DNA of 64,000 nucleotides. Source: an uncultured Candidatus Saccharibacteria bacterium (lineage in GTDB: Bacteria > Patescibacteriota > Minisyncoccia > 2-02-FULL-40-12 > GWA2-44-9). A program made the translations under genes and the position numbers. The notes below the pieces were generated by a model that searched no databases, was not told the origin of the DNA, and was given only the letters and a program-made list of their open reading frames with translations. This document shows, one piece after another, positions 13,485 through 60,667 of the stretch; positions within the stretch are counted from its first letter, which is position 1; every line of letters begins with the position of its first letter. Where the stretch lies: NCBI GenBank assembly GCA_964491455.1, contig CAZBFM010000001.1, forward strand, positions 3,053-67,052. Direction: 5' to 3'.

Positions 13485-16655
<3,171 letters not shown>

Positions 16656-16749
16656 TGTTGTCGGAGATCCCTTATAAAATCAAGTTCAGATGCAGTGATA
16701 TATGGTGCGATTTATTACCCGTAAGAAAACCGAAGCTGTTGTGGCTTTC

Positions 16750-16863
16750 GGTAAGGTGGCATTGCCACGAGTGCTCCACCCGTTCCCATCTCGAACACGG
16801 AAGTGAAATCTCGTAGGGCCCATGATAGTCGTTTACTCGGCGAAAGTAGGTCGCCGCCTTACC
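16750..16863 (+). rRNA. rrf: 5S ribosomal RNA
   Basis: ccacccgttcccatctcgaacacggaagtgaaat…; terminal helix ggtaagg/ccttacc. Confidence 0.85.
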
Positions 16864-46405: not shown

Positions 46406-46700
46406 AGTAATAGTAATGTTGGTGGCATCCTACTCCCCAAGAGGGCTTATATCAAGGTATCGATGAGGCTTCCAATTAACCATCAATAGTGGTAATTTAT
46501 GCTTAACAATTTATCGCCTAACCCTTGTGAGCTTGTTGTCACAAGATATGGCGAAAAAATCCCCATCCCTGATACTGAACCCCTCGTTCAGCGCACTCAG
46601 GGATGGGTCATGCCCGAAAGGGTATGTGAGTCGCAAGACTCAACGCTAGCGGGGGGCTTTGTGTTTCCCGTTTGCGACATAGGTTTTACCCATCCCTACT

Positions 46701-53853: not shown

Positions 53854-55077
53854 ATGTCGAGTGCTCGTGATTCAATTTTTCGATCATATGATATTCGAGG
53901 ATCCTATCCGGGTGATTTTGATACGCAGTTTGCGCAGCGTCTCGGTGCTCGTGTGACTCAGTGGCTGCCAACAGGGCCGATAATTATCGGTCGCGATGCG
54001 CGTGCAACGAGTGATGGGCTTGCCTATGCCGTCGTTGATGGAGCGCTCCATGCTGGCGCCCAGATTATTGATGTGGGTGTCGTGTCGACACCGCAATTCT
54101 ATTGGGCGATACGGTCTCGTGGCGCCACGGGCGGTATTATGATCACTGCTTCGCATAATCCTGCACAGGACAATGGATTTAAAGTTATTGCTATCCGTGG
54201 AGGCGTGTTGGAGGTGGTTGGAGGGGATGTATTGCGGCAAATAGTTGACGTGCATGAGCATGGCGCAGCTACAACAGGGACGATAGAATTCGCGTCAGTG
54301 CTGGAGGGGTATACTGCGGCTGTTGCGTATGCGGCGCGCTGGCAAGGAGGGCGCGAGCTCGTGACCTCTTGCGATGGCCCACGGGCCGTACAAGCCGTCC
54401 TGGAGCGTCTGGGCCCTATTGCTACGAGCGATACGCTGGCGGTACGATTTGACGCCGATGGTGACCGCGTCAATTTCTTTGAGTCTGGTCAGCAGATTCC
54501 ATCAGACTTTATCTTTCTTCTCCTGGCGGAATACTACGGCTACGCGCCATTGGTGTTTGATCTGCGATTTTCGAAAACGGTACGACAGCGACTTGATGCA
54601 CGTCAGGTCTCCTATGAGGTGTCTGCGGTGGGGCGTGTGCAATTGACGCAGGCCATGCATCGCCTCGGTGCGCAATTCGGGGGAGAGACGAGCGGACACT
54701 TCTATTGGAAAGAGTTTGGTGGTATGGAGTGTCCCGAGCTCACGATGTTGCGTGTGCTCGAAATTATGCGGTCCAGCAAGCAGTCGCTAACATCGCTCAC
54801 TGCTCCTTATCGACTGTATGCGAAAAGCGAGGAGCTTACGGTGCCATTGGCAGATCGAAAACATGCGGCTTCTCTCATGCGCGTATTGCAGCAAAAATAT
54901 GAGGATGCGCACATCACGCATGTTGATGGTGTCACGATTGAATATGAGGAATGGTGGTGCACAGTGCGCCCATCAAACACGGAGCCCCTCTTGCGAATTG
55001 TCGTCGAGGCTATCAATAAAAAAATCCTCGATCAAGCGATCGAGGAGGTGATGACAATTCTTCATCAGGGAAGGTGA
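53854..55077 (+). CDS. phosphoglucomutase/phosphomannomutase family protein
   Basis: …IRGSYPGDF…; active-site TASHNP. Confidence 0.85.
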   Translation: MSSARDSIFRSYDIRGSYPGDFDTQFAQRLGARVTQWLPTGPIIIGRDARATSDGLAYAVVDGALHAGAQIIDVGVVSTPQFYWAIRSRGATGGIMITASHNPAQDNGFKVIAIRGGVLEVVGGDVLRQIVDVHEHGAATTGTIEFASVLEGYTAAVAYAARWQGGRELVTSCDGPRAVQAVLERLGPIATSDTLAVRFDADGDRVNFFESGQQIPSDFIFLLLAEYYGYAPLVFDLRFSKTVRQRLDARQVSYEVSAVGRVQLTQAMHRLGAQFGGETSGHFYWKEFGGMECPELTMLRVLEIMRSSKQSLTSLTAPYRLYAKSEELTVPLADRKHAASLMRVLQQKYEDAHITHVDGVTIEYEEWWCTVRPSNTEPLLRIVVEAINKKILDQAIEEVMTILHQGR

Positions 55078-55297
55078 GACTTGTAGACAATACTAATCGA
55101 TGCGATCTCCTCGCCGGGCACGGGGGTCGTTTGACCATCGGCGTGGAGTGCTTGTCGCAGGGTCGACGAGAGCTCGCCGATTTCAAGCGTGCACTTACGA
55201 GTTGCGCTTCTTGCAACAGTGCCACTGGGGCGATTGAAATTATCGATAACCCACCGCGGAGGCGGAGGGACGTTCTCTGCTGTCATACCATAGCTCC

Positions 55298-56296
55298 TTA
55301 TCGCAACCCCATGCGGCTGAAGGCCTCTTCGAGGTTTTGCGACGCAATAGTTCTAGCTTTTTCTTCTGACTCGGTCAATATTTTCTGCACACGCTGTGGA
55401 TCGGCCACGAATGCGGCACGACGCGCTTGGAGTGGCTCAAGGAAGGCCACGACGCAGTCGGCGATTTCCTGCTTAAAGACGGAATATGACTTTCCCGCAA
55501 AGTGCTCCTCGAGCGATGCTATTGGTGTGTTCGAGAGCGTTGCCATGAGGGTGAGCAAATTGGAAACCGCCGGCTTGGCCTCTTCGTCAAAACGGATTTC
55601 GTTGCCTGAATCGGTGACGGCGCGCTTAATTTTGCCACGCACAATGTCTGGTTCGTCGGTGAGTGCGATACCATCATCGCCGGTCTTCGACATTTTCTTT
55701 GTGGGGTCTTGGAGGCTCATAATGCGGGCGCCGGTGGCAAGATGGGGTTTGACGCGAGGGAATAGCTCTCCGAAGAGGTGATTAAATTTGCCTCCGACTT
55801 CGTTAGTGAGCTCAATGTGGACGACCTGATCTTCGCCAACCGGTACGAGATCGGCTTTGTAGAGAAGGATGTCGGCCGCCATCAGAACAGGGTAGGATAG
55901 TAGTCCAAGATTGTTCTGGTAGCTGGCGCCGCGGTCACCCATGGCATTAACCTGGTCAACTTTCTCGCGCCAGTTTGGCAGACGCTCCAGCCAGCCGACG
56001 GGAGTAATCGTCGACAGCAGCCACATAAGCTGGGTGTGCTGTGGAATGCGCGATTGGCGGACGAGAAGTGCTTTTTCGGGGTTAATGCCGGCGGCGAGGT
56101 AGTCGAGGATGACGTCATCAATCTGTGTCTGAAATGACGCAGGCTCAAATGGCGTCGTAATACCATGGAGATCGACAACTCCAAAGATTGCCAGCTCCGC
56201 CGAGTCTTGGAGTTCAATCCAGTTTTTGATGGCACCGATATAATTGCCCAGATGAAGCTTTCCACTGGGGCGCATGCCACTAAAGATACGAGTCAT
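55298..56296 (-). CDS. trpS: tryptophan--tRNA ligase
   Basis: start at internal Met MTRIFSGMRPSGKLHLGNY (HIGH-type); KMSKT motif (KKMSKTGDDG). Confidence 0.9.
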   Translation of the reverse strand: MTRIFSGMRPSGKLHLGNYIGAIKNWIELQDSAELAIFGVVDLHGITTPFEPASFQTQIDDVILDYLAAGINPEKALLVRQSRIPQHTQLMWLLSTITPVGWLERLPNWREKVDQVNAMGDRGASYQNNLGLLSYPVLMAADILLYKADLVPVGEDQVVHIELTNEVGGKFNHLFGELFPRVKPHLATGARIMSLQDPTKKMSKTGDDGIALTDEPDIVRGKIKRAVTDSGNEIRFDEEAKPAVSNLLTLMATLSNTPIASLEEHFAGKSYSVFKQEIADCVVAFLEPLQARRAAFVADPQRVQKILTESEEKARTIASQNLEEAFSRMGLR

Positions 56297-56382: not shown

Positions 56383-56676
56383 ATGAGCACTGTTGAAAGC
56401 AGGTTGTACCTGCATGACGAGCCGACGATTCGTGACATTATGGATATGATTGCGAAGCATCGTCGGGCGTGGGATGGATACCGAGTCACGCTCAATATTC
56501 ATCTGATTCCGGGGCGTGAGGAGTCGCTACCCAATGAGTTTCCGCATCCGGAGCTGCTTGATCAGCTTCGCGAGCGACTCAGAGATGCCGCCAGCGTGGA
56601 GACATGCATTCGTAGCTGGGTGGACCCCGAGCGTGAGGAGGATCAAGCAGCTTGGGTCATTGTTGTTCGTTGCTAG
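56383..56676 (+). CDS. hypothetical protein (97 aa)
   Basis: TTGACT-N17-TAATAT promoter, AAAGGAG RBS, strong terminator downstream. Confidence 0.5.
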   Translation: MSTVESRLYLHDEPTIRDIMDMIAKHRRAWDGYRVTLNIHLIPGREESLPNEFPHPELLDQLRERLRDAASVETCIRSWVDPEREEDQAAWVIVVRC

Positions 56677-56681
56677 TCGTC

Positions 56682-56711
56682 AGGCGCCCGCACAGCGCGG
56701 GCGTTTTTTAT
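56682..56711 (+). terminator. intrinsic terminator (cgcccgcacagcgcgggcg + T-run)
   Basis: hairpin plus TTTTTTA. Confidence 0.55.
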
Positions 56712-56713
56712 AC

Positions 56714-56740
56714 AAAAAACCGCCTCCGAAGAGGCGGGGA
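56714..56740 (-). terminator. minus-strand terminator copy 1 (ccccgcctcttcggaggcgg + T-run)
   Basis: one of three near-identical hairpins, each at the 3' end of a zinc-ribbon paralog. Confidence 0.6.
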
Positions 56741-56744
56741 GCGC

Positions 56745-57131
56745 TTACGCTGGGCGAAGACCAGAACCCTTGCACGTTGGGCAGTCTTGTAGTGTGGAAT
56801 CTATGGGACTTCCAATGTACCGTTCACCGTCGCCATAACAATCAGGGCAAAGTCTTTTAAGAATACTCAATTGCGCCGATTGCATGAGAGCTTCCTGTGA
56901 TTTAAGGAGGCCTTCAGCAAGTGTCTTGCGATGCGTTAGGACTGGCTCTAGGCCTTCGGTACACGGATGGAGCGTCACTCCCGCAGCAATGAGTCGTTTG
57001 CTCAGTTCTTGATAGACAAGTAGATCGTCAGACGCTGCCCTGAAGTCTTCTCGCAGTCGCTCAATGCTGCTTCTCCCAATTCGTCTCAAATTTGTTAGCT
57101 CAAGAGCTTCATCAGCTTGTCCGTTTATCAT
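56745..57131 (-). CDS. small helical protein with C-terminal DnaJ-like double CxxCxGxG zinc ribbon (paralog A)
   Basis: start at internal Met (AAGGAG RBS); C-terminus CPDCYGDGERY…CPTCKGSG; own TTGACA-N17-TATATT promoter. Confidence 0.55.
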   Translation of the reverse strand: MINGQADEALELTNLRRIGRSSIERLREDFRAASDDLLVYQELSKRLIAAGVTLHPCTEGLEPVLTHRKTLAEGLLKSQEALMQSAQLSILKRLCPDCYGDGERYIGSPIDSTLQDCPTCKGSGLRPA

Positions 57132-57187
57132 GGCAACTCCTTGGTAGCGTTCTAATGAAATATACATTGATATGCTTAATATGTCAA

Positions 57188-57214
57188 TAAAAACCGCCTC
57201 CGAAGAGGCGGGGA
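57188..57214 (-). terminator. minus-strand terminator copy 2 (same hairpin)
   Basis: aaaaaccgcctccgaagaggcgggg on plus strand. Confidence 0.6.
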
Positions 57215-57217
57215 ACG

Positions 57218-57640
57218 TCAGCAGCCGTTGGGCTGCGGTGTATACGAAGGCTTTGCAGAAATGCTCACGCCTTTGCAGTCGGGGCAGATCGTGGTGACGG
57301 GAGTCGTCTGGTCGCGCCCATCGGCTGAATATGTCACTGAATGAATGCCTTTGCACGTGGCACAGGTGCGTGTTTTCAGCGCATTCAGCTTCGCGACGAG
57401 CGCGAGCAGTTCATCGAGCTGAAAATGGAGCCGATTAAGCTCTTCCTGCAGCGCGAACTCGATGCATGACTGCTGCTGAGTGCCTCCGGAGGGAGCTCCC
57501 TCAAGATCCGTGATGATTCGGTGCGATTCGCGAACGGTGGTTAACATTTTCTCCTTATCGCGAATGAGCGACTTGAGCGTTGTTTGGTGGATCTCAAGAT
57601 CGTCAATGATCCAGTAGACGCGATTCAGTGGCATGCTCAT
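57218..57640 (-). CDS. small helical protein with C-terminal CxxCxG…CxxCxG zinc ribbon (paralog B)
   Basis: 140 aa; CATCKGIH…CPDCKGVS; own TTGACT-N17-TATAGT promoter and AAAGGAG RBS. Confidence 0.55.
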   Translation of the reverse strand: MSMPLNRVYWIIDDLEIHQTTLKSLIRDKEKMLTTVRESHRIITDLEGAPSGGTQQQSCIEFALQEELNRLHFQLDELLALVAKLNALKTRTCATCKGIHSVTYSADGRDQTTPVTTICPDCKGVSISAKPSYTPQPNGC

Positions 57641-57705
57641 ACATTTCTCCTTTGAAATGAACGTGAGTATACTATAACAAAAAAATATAAAGTAGTCAAT
57701 ACAAC

Positions 57706-57730
57706 AAAACCGCCTCCGAAGAGGCGGTGA
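57706..57730 (-). terminator. minus-strand terminator copy 3 (same hairpin)
   Basis: aaaaccgcctccgaagaggcggtga on plus strand. Confidence 0.6.
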
Positions 57731-57733
57731 GTA

Positions 57734-58114
57734 CTACCAGCGCATGCCGGTCCCGTTGCAGTCGGCGCAGGTCACGAGATTGACTCCGTTTGGATACGGT
57801 GCCAGTCGCTGGAACTGCTTACCCTGCCCGTTGCAGGAACGGCAGACCTTACTGGCGATACGTTTATGAAACTCGTCCGTAACTCTGCGGAGTCGAGTGA
57901 CGCGAGCGTACATTTTCTTGTGCAGCGCTTTGAGCTCGCGCAGATGCGTTGCGGTACGTGCTGTGATGCCGAGAGCGCGATACATCTTCGCACTCTGTTC
58001 GTAGAACTGTATCTCGGAACTTACGGTTGAGAGCTGGGCACTGGCACTATTGAGAGCATTGCCTCCGCTTGCCAATACAGCCAGCACGTCTTGGCCTGCG
58101 AAGGGGAAGTGCAT
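57734..58114 (-). CDS. small helical protein with C-terminal double CxxCxGxG zinc ribbon (paralog C)
   Basis: CRSCNGQGKQF…CADCNGTG; start 58114 or 58129 (3 nt after stop of upstream gene, translational coupling). Confidence 0.55.
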   Translation of the reverse strand: MHFPFAGQDVLAVLASGGNALNSASAQLSTVSSEIQFYEQSAKMYRALGITARTATHLRELKALHKKMYARVTRLRRVTDEFHKRIASKVCRSCNGQGKQFQRLAPYPNGVNLVTCADCNGTGMRW

Positions 58115-58132
58115 TTTCGATCGTCTCATGCG

Positions 58133-58468
58133 TTACTCCGATTTCTGCGCAGCTTCAGCGAACATCTCTTCGAGCTTACTCTTCATTGCTGTGAGCGCCA
58201 TTATGCAAGTGTCTATTTCGTCGAGTTGGCGATTCGCATCAAGGAGGGCGCGCGAGGCGATCGTTTGCCATTCTTCCGTGTGAACGATAAGGCGCGTCTC
58301 TCTTATCAAGAAGTCTTTGCGATGATTGATAAGCGTCCAGAAGCGCAGTCTCTCCTTGCTAGCCTGCTGAGTCAAATAGATCTCGCCTCGGATTTTACGT
58401 GCAAGATCGATGTCCGCGTTGACGGCTTCAATGCTGGTGTATCGAGTACTAATATACTGTAAATCCAC
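58133..58468 (-). CDS. small helical protein, zinc-ribbon-less member of the same array (paralog D)
   Basis: probable GTG start with AAGGAG RBS 6 nt upstream; coiled-coil-like. Confidence 0.45.
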   Translation of the reverse strand: MDLQYISTRYTSIEAVNADIDLARKIRGEIYLTQQASKERLRFWTLINHRKDFLIRETRLIVHTEEWQTIASRALLDANRQLDEIDTCIMALTAMKSKLEEMFAEAAQKSE

Positions 58469-58570
58469 GGGATGCTCCTTGTAAATGAACAAAGAGATTA
58501 TACAGCAATATCATGATACATCAACATCCCGCATGTGCGGGATGTTGGGTGAGAGCTATGGAGATTCGTT

Positions 58571-60667
58571 TTAGACCTCGATGATGACAGGAAGAATCAT
58601 AGGACGACGCTCTGTTTTCTGGAACAAGAACTGTCCGATGTCGTCGCGGATTTCGTCTTTGAGATACGTTAGGTTGAGCGGTCGCGCCTTCTCACCTTCG
58701 ATGATAGTGCGCACGCGTTTGCGTACCTGCATGAGGAGCTCTTTTTGCTCTTTGAGGTAGATGAAGCCGCGACTGATGATGTCGGGGCTGGCGCGCATAC
58801 GACCGGTCTTTGGCTCCACAACGCAGATGATGGTAAACATACCATCTTCTGCGAGCGCTTGGCGATCGCGAAGTACGACGTTGCCGATGTCACCGATACC
58901 CAAGCCGTCCACCATGATGAGATTCGATGGTGCTACTTTCTTATCGAACCACCAGGTATCCGGGGTGAGGTGAATAATCTGACCGTTATCTGCGATTACG
59001 ATGTTTTCTTCGGGGATGCCGACAGCTTTACCGAGCTCACCGTTGGAAACCATCATGCTGTACTGGCCATGGTGGGGGATGAGAAACTTTGGACGTGTCA
59101 GAAGCATGATTTCCTTGAGATCTTCCTGACGTGCGTGTCCTCCTGCGTGGATGTCCATCATGGCGTAGTGGTACACTTTGACGCCACCACGGTAGAGCAT
59201 GTCTTTGAGGTACTGCACGGATCGCTCGTTGCCTGGAATGACGGAGCTTGAAAAGATAACGGTATCCTTTCGCTGCATCTGGATGTGACGATGTTCGCCA
59301 TTGACTATACGCATGAGTGAGGCACCTTCCTGTCCCATGGCACCTGTGGCAACCACAGTGATTTGCTCGCGAGGATAGTCCTTAATCTGTTCCATCGAGA
59401 TCTGGGTACCCTTTTGCATCTTGATGTAGCCCATCTCTTTGGCGATTTCGACATTACTCTTGAGGGAGTAGCCATCGAAGATCACTTTGCGGCCATACTT
59501 TTCAGACAGCTGGACGAGCTGCTGCATGCGGTTGATCATCGAGCTAAAGGTACCGACGATGAGCATGCCGGTGGCATCCTTGAAGATGATGTCCATGTTC
59601 TCATAGATGGTCTGCTCGGAAACGGAGTGTCCCGGGCGCTCAGCATCGGTGGAGTCCACCATGAGAGCGAGTACGCCACGATCGCCGAATGAGCGAATCT
59701 TCATGAGGTCGACCGGCTTGTCGTTGATAGGGGTCGCATCAAACTTGAAGTCGGCTGTGTGGATGAAGTTGCCCGCTGGGGTCTCGATGAACGTTCCCAA
59801 GTCATCAGGAATGTTGTGGTTCATGTGGAAGAATTCCACCTTGAAGTAGTCGCCCATCTGTACGACGTCGCCATCTTTGACCACGTGAATGGGGAGCTTC
59901 GGGAGCTGAGGGAACTCACTGTGACGCTTGAGAACCAGGTTCTTGGTGAGCTCGGCGGTGTAGATGTCTGGGTTGCCGAGTTTCTGTTGCAAGTATGGTA
60001 CAGCTCCTACGTGGTCCATGTGGCCGTGCGTGAGGATGAGGCCGCGAATGCGGTCGGTCTTGCCCTCGAGGTATCCGACGTTCGGGATGATAAAATCAAT
60101 GCCTGGCATGGACTCGTCGGGGAACTTAATACCCACATCAATAATAATGATGTCGTCTTTGTACTCGAGCATGTAGGCGTTCTTTCCGATTTCGCCTAAT
60201 CCACCAAGTGCAATGACTTTGAGCGTATCGTCGCCCGCTGACTCGCCGAGCTCTTTGGGAGCGCCAATGCGACCCTCGTGAAGCTGGGTGGGCATGAGAC
60301 GGCGCTGGCTTGGCAATTTCTTACGAGGCATGCCGAGTCGTCGATCGCGCTTGCCGCGCTTTGGTGTTTCGTCTGCTGCTGCAGATGTTGCGCTTGCGCC
60401 AGGTGCTGGAGGCTCATCTTCCTTGCGAGGAGGATGGCTTGCGAATTGCTGTGGGCGAGGAGTGCTCCCCGGTGCCTGTGGTTGTCGACGCTGGAAGCGA
60501 TTGCGACGATGTCCTCCCTGCGGATGTCCACCGGCGTGGTATGCGCGTTGAGCAATAGGCTCCTTTTTTTGAGGAGCAGAGGCGAGAGTTGCTGTGGGTG
60601 CTGGCACTGGGTCAAGACCGGGGCCAAATCCTGTTGGTACGGGTTTCGTGTCTGGGGTATCTGACAT
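58571..60667 (-). CDS. rnj: ribonuclease J (metallo-beta-lactamase/beta-CASP) with about 140-aa disordered Pro/Arg/Gly-rich N-terminal extension
   Basis: …LTHGHMDHVGAVPYL… HxHxDH motif; beta-CASP region; 698 aa. Confidence 0.9.
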   Translation of the reverse strand: MSDTPDTKPVPTGFGPGLDPVPAPTATLASAPQKKEPIAQRAYHAGGHPQGGHRRNRFQRRQPQAPGSTPRPQQFASHPPRKEDEPPAPGASATSAAADETPKRGKRDRRLGMPRKKLPSQRRLMPTQLHEGRIGAPKELGESAGDDTLKVIALGGLGEIGKNAYMLEYKDDIIIIDVGIKFPDESMPGIDFIIPNVGYLEGKTDRIRGLILTHGHMDHVGAVPYLQQKLGNPDIYTAELTKNLVLKRHSEFPQLPKLPIHVVKDGDVVQMGDYFKVEFFHMNHNIPDDLGTFIETPAGNFIHTADFKFDATPINDKPVDLMKIRSFGDRGVLALMVDSTDAERPGHSVSEQTIYENMDIIFKDATGMLIVGTFSSMINRMQQLVQLSEKYGRKVIFDGYSLKSNVEIAKEMGYIKMQKGTQISMEQIKDYPREQITVVATGAMGQEGASLMRIVNGEHRHIQMQRKDTVIFSSSVIPGNERSVQYLKDMLYRGGVKVYHYAMMDIHAGGHARQEDLKEIMLLTRPKFLIPHHGQYSMMVSNGELGKAVGIPEENIVIADNGQIIHLTPDTWWFDKKVAPSNLIMVDGLGIGDIGNVVLRDRQALAEDGMFTIICVVEPKTGRMRASPDIISRGFIYLKEQKELLMQVRKRVRTIIEGEKARPLNLTYLKDEIRDDIGQFLFQKTERRPMILPVIIEV

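Follow-up and report, generated by a model that had tools for sequence, protein, structure and literature searches.

A hypervariable array of small helical-hairpin and zinc-knuckle protein genes between the RNase J and TrpRS genes of a patescibacterial genome

Zinc-binding CxxCxGxG motifs occur in the cysteine-rich (CR) domain of the DnaJ/Hsp40 chaperones and in anti-TRAP (RtpA), whereas DksA/TraR and the HP0958/MSMEG_4306 proteins (COG1579) join an antiparallel coiled-coil hairpin to a four-cysteine zinc module. At the level of gene organization, integrons carry tandem single-gene cassettes, and a unit made of promoter, gene and terminator is the classic layout of phage morons. Here we describe a locus that resembles all of these in part. 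It lies in a stretch of 64,000 nucleotides, called the window below, of contig CAZBFM010000001.1 from an uncultured Candidatus Saccharibacteria bacterium, and consists of four consecutive small genes, D, C, B and A, in the slot between the genes of RNase J and tryptophanyl-tRNA synthetase (TrpRS). We interpret it as a lineage-restricted, hypervariable array of small-protein cassettes that is reshuffled by recombination and whose products may be polymorphic binders engaged in some conflict, a reading that we find plausible, if somewhat short of probable. Loci of related genomes are referred to by number (L002, L004 and so on).

The zinc motif is shared with DnaJ and anti-TRAP. As in these, the CxxCxGxG motifs of the array proteins flank a short beta hairpin, and the predicted knuckle, with one zinc and four cysteines, is like one of the two zinc centres of DnaJ or the anti-TRAP monomer. 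The array proteins differ from the CR domain in having two motifs instead of four and in lacking the C-terminal substrate-binding domains, and none of them matched the J domain (PF00226). Their N-terminal helical hairpin of 90 residues has no counterpart in either the CR domain or anti-TRAP, and anti-TRAP has about 53 amino acids (aa), whereas the zinc proteins of the array have 128-140 aa and an extra helical domain. The scores fall accordingly: 17.5-24.9 bits (the best for C) against a cut-off of 32.7 for Pfam DnaJ_CXXCXGXG (PF00684), 17.9 against 32 for Pfam anti-TRAP (PF15777), 14.6-14.9 against 65 for NCBIfam anti-TRAP (NF058604) and 12-16 against 377 for NCBIfam TIGR02349 (DnaJ). We therefore place the proteins outside both families. 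An anti-sigma-like or chaperone-like role, considered in the original prediction made from the sequence alone, found no evidence in its favour.

The likeness to DksA/TraR and HP0958 is one of predicted shape, as the model of C would combine a coiled-coil hairpin with a four-cysteine zinc module in the same order. However, the Pfam scan at E <= 10 gave no match to zf-dskA_traR (PF01258), and the array pattern is the DnaJ-type CxxCxGxG while that of DksA/TraR is CxxC-x17-CxxC. No conserved acidic motif is visible by eye in the sequences at the tip of the array hairpin. Nor was there a Pfam match to zf-RING_7, the zinc domain looked for in the HP0958 group, and the Foldseek match of C to 5y06 (MSMEG_4306) was insignificant (E 0.99, probability 0.35, TM 0.32). 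The array family varies between strains, whereas the DksA and HP0958 groups are conserved.

In its organization the locus is reminiscent of integron arrays: it has tandem single-gene cassettes with a conserved hairpin repeat at their ends, it is strain-variable, and its junctions lie at the repeat. However, integrons have an IntI recombinase and an attI site next to them, and no recombinase family is listed among the genes within about 6 kb of the array. Integron attC sites are imperfect palindromes of 57-141 bp with extrahelical bases, whereas the array repeat is a perfect 18-nt hairpin followed by a run of T; integron cassettes are promoterless, whereas B and A appear to have promoters of their own; and one cassette boundary of the array, the D/C junction, is not at a hairpin. 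The moron layout can be recognized in the putative units D-C, B and A, but in place of a prophage or phage the flanks consist of housekeeping genes, and the one phage-type match nearby, a holin-like Pfam match, lies about 5.5 kb upstream in L012.

Genes, hairpins and proteins of the array

The features of the array and its two flanking genes are, in the direction of transcription:

58571..60667, minus strand: RNase J gene, upstream flank; the array is always directly downstream of it
58497..58524, minus strand: promoter-like site of the D-C unit (TTGATG, 16 nt, TATAAT), followed by the 5' untranslated region (5'UTR) ...TTTACAAGGAG
58133..58468, minus strand: gene D, 111 aa, GTG start, predicted acidic helical hairpin without zinc motif; first gene of the D-C unit
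57734..58129, minus strand: gene C, 131 aa, basic, predicted helical hairpin and two CxxCxGxG motifs; coupled to D
57710..57727, minus strand: terminator hairpin after C, with GC stem, UUCG loop and T-run
57671..57699, minus strand: promoter-like site of B (TTGACT, 17 nt, TATAGT, with TG extension)
57218..57640, minus strand: gene B, 140 aa, helical region and degenerate CxxCxG motifs; C-terminal PQPNGC
57194..57211, minus strand: terminator hairpin after B; the -35 element of A's promoter begins 6 nt downstream
57159..57187, minus strand: promoter-like site of A (TTGACA, 17 nt, TATATT; 11 of 12 matches)
56745..57131, minus strand: gene A, 128 aa, acidic, predicted helical hairpin and two CxxCxGxG motifs
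56720..56737, minus strand: terminator hairpin after A; right-hand boundary of the divergence island
55298..56296, minus strand: TrpRS gene, downstream flank

The four head-to-tail open reading frames (ORFs) had been predicted as genes of 111-140 aa, and independent gene calls on an identical public contig gave the same four lengths. The best three sigma-70-like sites between 55000 and 61000 (10-11 of 12 matches) are located just upstream of D, B and A, the same genes that are preceded by AAGGAG-type ribosome-binding sites; the GTG start of D follows its AAGGAG by 7 nt. At the D/C junction the TAA of D and the ATG of C are 3 nt apart, with neither promoter nor terminator between them, in agreement with the translational coupling that had been proposed. 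Since C lacks a promoter of its own and is separated from the stop codon of D by nothing but these 3 nt, the signals define three transcription units (D-C, B and A), not four. The original prediction had assigned a promoter and an AAGGAG site to each of A, B and C, and had taken every gene for an independent unit, which the signals support for A and B, whereas C shares the unit of D. As judged by these signals, a unit has a strong promoter and a Shine-Dalgarno site ahead of an ORF of about 125-140 aa, and it ends with a terminator hairpin. All strains and lineages examined retain near-consensus promoters and ribosome-binding sites, and a 5'UTR motif, TTTTACAA(A)GGAG, is kept upstream of the first array gene even in distant relatives.

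The 18-nt hairpin CCGCCTCTTCGGAGGCGG has exactly three copies in the window, one immediately behind each of C, B and A, as had been noted; the expected count is 0.01, and none of 100 shuffled sequences reached three copies. It folds into a GC stem of 7-8 bp with a UUCG loop (-14 to -16 kcal/mol), and each copy, with the T-run behind it, scores as an intrinsic terminator. In all 50 related loci examined the hairpin is confined to these arrays, a distribution different from that of genome-wide repeats of the repetitive extragenic palindromic type, the alternative that had been raised against its connection with the genes. Because two loci (L012, L017) have the same stem with an ACAC loop and two others (L011, L015) a different stem, the terminator can be assigned to the ancestral unit, with which it was copied. 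The 22-mer consisting of the hairpin and TTTT had no match in viral contigs and was found once each in 59 unrelated metagenome contigs, in none of them beside a family gene; the sequence is a generic strong terminator, special only in its arrayed use here. More than 20 copies are identical and show no compensatory stem changes while the adjoining coding DNA is saturated with substitutions, which suggests that, on top of functional constraint, the hairpins have been homogenised by recombination.

A second inverted repeat, absent from the window, directly follows the last array hairpin in three related loci (L002 2145-2176, L004 6939-6970 and L008 1969-2000). It is a perfect palindrome of 32 nt (CGTCTGGATATC, an 8-nt loop, GATATCCAGACG), whose loop is flipped (ACTTATAC vs GTATAAGT) between otherwise near-identical strains. 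The flipped loop may reflect hairpin-loop inversion.

Homology between A and C extends over the entire length of both (hhalign probability 94%, E 1.6e-7, 112 columns). By direct profile comparison B matched A and C in the zinc part only, and it was in an iterative search with the ORFs of the related loci that B joined A, C and E (a fifth gene found in relatives) over most of its length. D matched nothing but its own orthologs in the profile comparisons and the iterative search (2.5% probability against a 20-sequence family profile). The proposed paralogy of the four genes can thus be maintained for A, B and C, which align beyond the cysteine motifs and are, on the basis of these comparisons, true paralogs that combine a helical domain with a single zinc knuckle of the DnaJ type; it cannot be maintained for D, which has no detectable homology to them. 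Similarly, the double CxxCxG(x)G motif ascribed to all three is intact in A and C, while in B it is degenerate (CATCKGIH and CPDCKGVS). Across all 13 divergent family members the four cysteines are invariant and the motif glycines nearly so. The spacing in the CxxCxGxG zinc motif is 12-25 residues.

The predicted fold of the family, which comprises A, B and C and the E proteins of relatives, is an antiparallel helical hairpin of about 40 residues per arm followed by one four-cysteine zinc knuckle. In the AlphaFold2 model of C, which includes the zinc ribbon whose prediction had been recommended, two helices (12-52 and 60-90) precede a small beta zinc ribbon (predicted local distance difference test score, pLDDT, 86.7). 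For D the single-sequence AlphaFold2 model consists of a helical hairpin and nothing else (helices 13-55 and 64-109), with a pLDDT of 81.6 for the best and 53-61 for the other four of the five models, so just one is confident. Since a helical hairpin is predicted and no homology match was obtained, D probably shares the fold type of A, B and C but not demonstrable ancestry. Members without zinc motif, linked to the family through the helical domain in the iterative search, also occur in relatives: the 131-aa E (L004 and L018), a 90-aa gene (L012) and a 110-aa gene (L020). C has a charge of +14 (pI 10.4), D and A of about -2, and the array proteins are without hydrophobic segments (grand average of hydropathicity -0.3 to -0.4). 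In the conservation profile the zinc ribbon is among the best-conserved parts of C and B; the most variable parts are mid-helix segments of both helices in C and all of helix 1 in B.

Of the four B alleles compared, three share an invariant C-terminus (PQPNGC, 57218-57232, minus strand) while differing elsewhere by about 42-44%; the divergent allele of L018 lacks it. The conserved cysteine at this terminus lies outside the zinc motifs.

Divergence and reshuffling of the cassettes

Compared with L004 and L018, the array forms an island of divergence. DNA identity is 94-95% in the left flank, 87% in the right flank and 65-70% in the array, where D is unalignable; the left edge of the island is the start codon of D, and the right edge comes immediately after the last hairpin. 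The protein identities between the window and L004 are:

flanking genes: RNase J 99% (synonymous divergence, dS, 0.27), TrpRS 96%, ORF X (an ORF between the array and TrpRS) 75%
array genes: A 66%, B 58%, C 53%, D 35%

In the same comparison the synonymous sites are saturated in the array and not in the flanks. Among strains with RNase J genes 98% identical in DNA, the alleles of C, B, A, D and E assort independently. The C alleles of L004, L006 and L018 are 95-100% identical to each other and only 54-56% identical to those of L008 or L002, which in turn share 63%, whereas for B it is L004, L008 and L002 that agree (96%), with 32% identity to L018. The fifth slot, E, holds a zinc-type gene of 125 aa in L002 and L006 and a basic, zinc-less gene of 131 aa in L004 and L018, and is empty in the window and in L008. 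In the alignments, swap junctions coincide with the hairpin on both sides of E, on both sides of B and on the right side of C, and the promoter of B travels with the B cassette. Read from these alignments, cassettes have been swapped, gained or lost, with junctions mostly at identical hairpins.

The ratio of nonsynonymous to synonymous substitution rates (dN/dS) was 0.08-0.78 in every comparison that could be computed, and for close alleles it was 0.3-0.8, against 0.01-0.03 in the flanks. Taken together, dN/dS below 1, the invariant cysteines and the retained expression signals point to functional but fast-evolving genes, whose old alleles are maintained and recombined. It had been proposed that the duplicated units reflect dosage or diversifying selection. 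The faster divergence relative to the flanks fits diversification better than dosage, but positive selection in the strict sense is not among the results, all ratios being below 1.

The same figures could be taken as a sign of weak constraint. Array genes would then be young, fast-evolving orphans that lack a specific function and are under relaxed selection with local recombination, their hairpins being kept as terminators that shield the neighbouring essential genes. The very narrow taxonomic range, the elevated dN/dS of close alleles and the easy loss of genes (E is missing from the window and L008) would all agree with such orphans, as would the occurrence of the 22-mer as a lone terminator in unrelated contigs. 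We nevertheless consider this explanation improbable. The cysteines and glycines of the knuckle are conserved across divergent members, dN/dS stays below 1, promoters and ribosome-binding sites are preserved, and the family persists across lineages in which RNase J has diverged to about 83%. The saturation of synonymous sites in the array and not in the flanks indicates old, maintained alleles rather than recent decay.

In the interpretation that we prefer, reshuffling would occur by homologous recombination between strains, anchored in conserved neighbour sequence and in the hairpin blocks of 22-27 nt. It is conceivable that the identical hairpins double as exchange points of an integrase-independent cassette-shuffling system, by which populations of Paceibacterota would keep and recombine a library of polymorphic binders, built of helical hairpin and zinc knuckle, that decide encounters with phage, host or competitor; we regard this more specific proposal as unlikely. 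If it were true, variable loci for recognition would be known of a new kind, in symbiotic bacteria of ultra-small size.

Genomic slot and possible function

The family is very rare. Searches among 5.8 billion proteins yielded 2 to 9 clusters each, and an exhaustive HMMER search of 1.84 billion representatives gave 10 matches at E <= 1e-3; in all, the family amounts to about a dozen clusters. Full-length relatives made up four of these ten (P0030, P0031, P0034 and P0036; 122-126 aa), all encoded immediately downstream of RNase J. Neither the word-index nor the exhaustive HMMER searches revealed a homolog outside the RNase J-adjacent slot or one with a name. All family members found are in the same slot of one Paceibacterota sub-clade; the cluster mates of the RNase J and TrpRS proteins are labelled Patescibacteria or Candidatus Paceibacterota. 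In the literature we found neither the family nor the locus described, and the protein family appears to be new.

Copy number varies among the related genomes, as a check suggested by the original prediction confirmed: arrays contain 1, 2, 3, 4 or 5 genes, with one gene in L011 and L015 and two in L017 and L020, while in L012 three genes (126, 90 and 125 aa) are coupled in translation and the second lacks the zinc motif. From L011, L015 and L012 we conclude that the array began as a single gene or a coupled operon rather than as separate units. The predicted duplication of whole promoter-gene-terminator units agrees with the repetition of such units in the array but not with its ancestral form.

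Scanning species-representative genomes with RNase J returned 33 loci. In more distant Paceibacterota TrpRS directly follows RNase J, with no family gene between them, so gene order indicates that the family is an insertion into the ancestral RNase J-TrpRS junction of one sub-clade. A functional linkage to RNase J or TrpRS was considered and rejected, as both genes are adjacent in relatives without the family; because the junction predates the family, adjacency to RNase J is no evidence of such a link. We also rejected, on composition, the possibility that the array is horizontally acquired foreign DNA (GC content 0.51 in the array and in the window alike). The locus can be regarded as a hypervariable accessory-gene hotspot assembled from known modules.

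The gap between RNase J and TrpRS measures 1-2.2 kb in other Paceibacterota and contains unrelated tiny ORFs of 50-59 aa with one or two CxxC pairs (L035 6986-7165, L039 7215-7394, L043 4413-4565 and L036 7804-7962). It may be that small zinc-ribbon genes generally land in this slot.

These distributions bear on a housekeeping function, according to which the proteins would be accessory factors, either holdase chaperones resembling the DnaJ zinc finger or factors that bind RNA polymerase or RNase J in the manner of DksA/TraR, Gre or HP0958. The zinc motif is of the DnaJ type (the best PDB profile match was the DnaJ CR domain 1exk, E 4e-4, next to the sub-threshold PF00684 scores), the coiled-coil hairpin and zinc ribbon recall DksA and HP0958/MSMEG_4306, with 5y06 among the Foldseek matches, and the Gfh1 coiled coil was weakly matched in the profile search (E 0.06). 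The constant position beside RNase J and the apparently strong expression signals would also agree with such a role. On the other hand, most Paceibacterota have RNase J directly beside TrpRS and lack the family, and therefore the position is that of an insertion hotspot rather than of a conserved partnership. With RNase J at 99% identity the array proteins reach only 35-66%, arrays differ in copy number (1 to 5) and alleles have been exchanged among strains, the DksA/TraR and zf-RING_7 models gave no matches, and all Foldseek E-values exceeded 0.05. We think a housekeeping role unlikely.

Our preferred reading, that of polymorphic binders in conflict, proposes with low confidence that the products, presumably highly expressed, take part in a conflict involving phage, host or competitor; the anatomy and the evolution of the locus, by contrast, are well supported. 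The array proteins would be abundant, soluble, non-enzymatic binders in which the zinc knuckle is the constant part, a common anchor or fold, and target specificity resides in the variable helix stretches (helix 1 in B, both helices in C). Where coupled genes encode one hairpin with zinc and one without, as C and D do here, the two could assemble into helical bundles. The allele pattern would result from balancing or frequency-dependent selection, as expected of a conflict rather than a housekeeping role.

A narrower form of the conflict hypothesis sees the locus as an array of immunity, antitoxin or decoy type, or as phage-derived, moron-like genes for superinfection exclusion or anti-phage defence. 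It would account for the layout of the units, for the allelic hypervariability with presence/absence variation and independent assortment, and for the acidic D (-2) and basic C (+14), which resemble a neutralising pair. Weak matches to small phage zinc-ribbon proteins in PHROGs also agree with it; the best was phrog_6060 ('antitermination protein Q-like', E 2e-6), limited to about 40 residues of the zinc motif, followed by phrog_19044 (E 0.05-0.07), and Q proteins were weakly matched in the PDB profile search as well. In a tblastn search of GenBank phages there was one marginal match, to a hypothetical protein of a T4-like phage (E 1e-3). However, these phage matches cover the zinc motif only, the surroundings of the array (about 6 kb) include no toxin, integrase, capsid or other phage gene in any locus, the hairpin is absent from viral contigs, and the GC content equals that of the genome. 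The array proteins belong to no known anti-phage defence system in PADLOC, where no match was better than E 0.009 and those found were on coiled-coil segments only. This explanation is possible but doubtful.

Several observations weigh against the reading as polymorphic conflict binders itself. Pfam, NCBIfam, PADLOC and PHROGs returned nothing above cut-off, or the zinc motif only, and Foldseek (C against PDB and BFVD, D against PDB) found generic coiled-coil hairpins only (such as the SerRS arm, EsxB, prefoldin and HlyD), none at E <= 0.001. Apart from the marginal zinc-motif match, no family relative was found in the viral and phage collections, and no toxin, defence or mobility gene is adjacent to the arrays examined. 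As to reshuffling, on its left side the C swap ends at the D/C junction, which has no hairpin, and it is possible that the sharp junctions mark the end of allele divergence rather than crossover sites. The alleles of D and C do not co-vary, which weakens the idea of a specific, co-evolving D-C pair. Finally, dN/dS never exceeded 1 in the comparisons computed, thus strict positive selection is not demonstrated.

The genomes of Patescibacteria (Candidate Phyla Radiation, CPR) are tiny and poor in accessory genes, and most of their biology is known by inference. A locus of 1 to 5 small genes, predicted to be strongly expressed, whose very old alleles are reshuffled one gene at a time, makes a strong candidate determinant of interactions at the level of strains, probably those with phage, host or competitors. 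The locus also provides a new protein family that combines a predicted helical hairpin with a single DnaJ-type zinc knuckle, and appears to be a clean natural example of terminator-bounded cassette exchange. Even if the function proves to be mundane, it would still be useful for tracing recombination and strain structure among these uncultured bacteria.

Neighbouring features of the window

The genes within about 6 kb to either side of the array are those of RNase J, PGI, a solute-binding protein, TrpRS and PGM. Between the array and TrpRS lies one further ORF:

56383..56676, plus strand: ORF X, 97 aa, convergent to the array, no known domain

ORF X gave no match in any library scanned. In most of the related loci that carry it, ORF X adjoins the array, as in L004, L008, L012, L015, L017 and L018, and its identity to the L004 copy is between the flank and the array values. 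It has a GC hairpin terminator of its own at about 56680-56705.

The N-terminus of RNase J (60250-60667, minus strand) carries a basic, low-complexity extension of about 140 aa (RRNRFQRRQPQ..., KRGKRDRRLGMPRKKLPSQRRL), and the tblastn matches of RNase J in more distant relatives start only at query residue 110-150. Directly 3' of TrpRS is an ORF of 73 aa (55065-55286, minus strand), with no Pfam match on record, that overlaps the end of a convergent phosphomannomutase-like gene; the gene calls of related contigs include comparable ORFs of 70-73 aa.

Farther away, a full-length match to the Rfam LOOT RNA (RF03000) was found at 46515-46642 on the plus strand (77.8 bits against a gathering score of 46.4); to our knowledge this motif has no established function. 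Since no 16S rRNA was detected anywhere in the window, the rRNA genes of this genome may be unlinked. The 23S rRNA (13486-16862, plus strand), with a 5S rRNA behind it, has a span of 3171 nt as compared with the 2925 positions of the model, and therefore probably carries about 250 nt of insertions.

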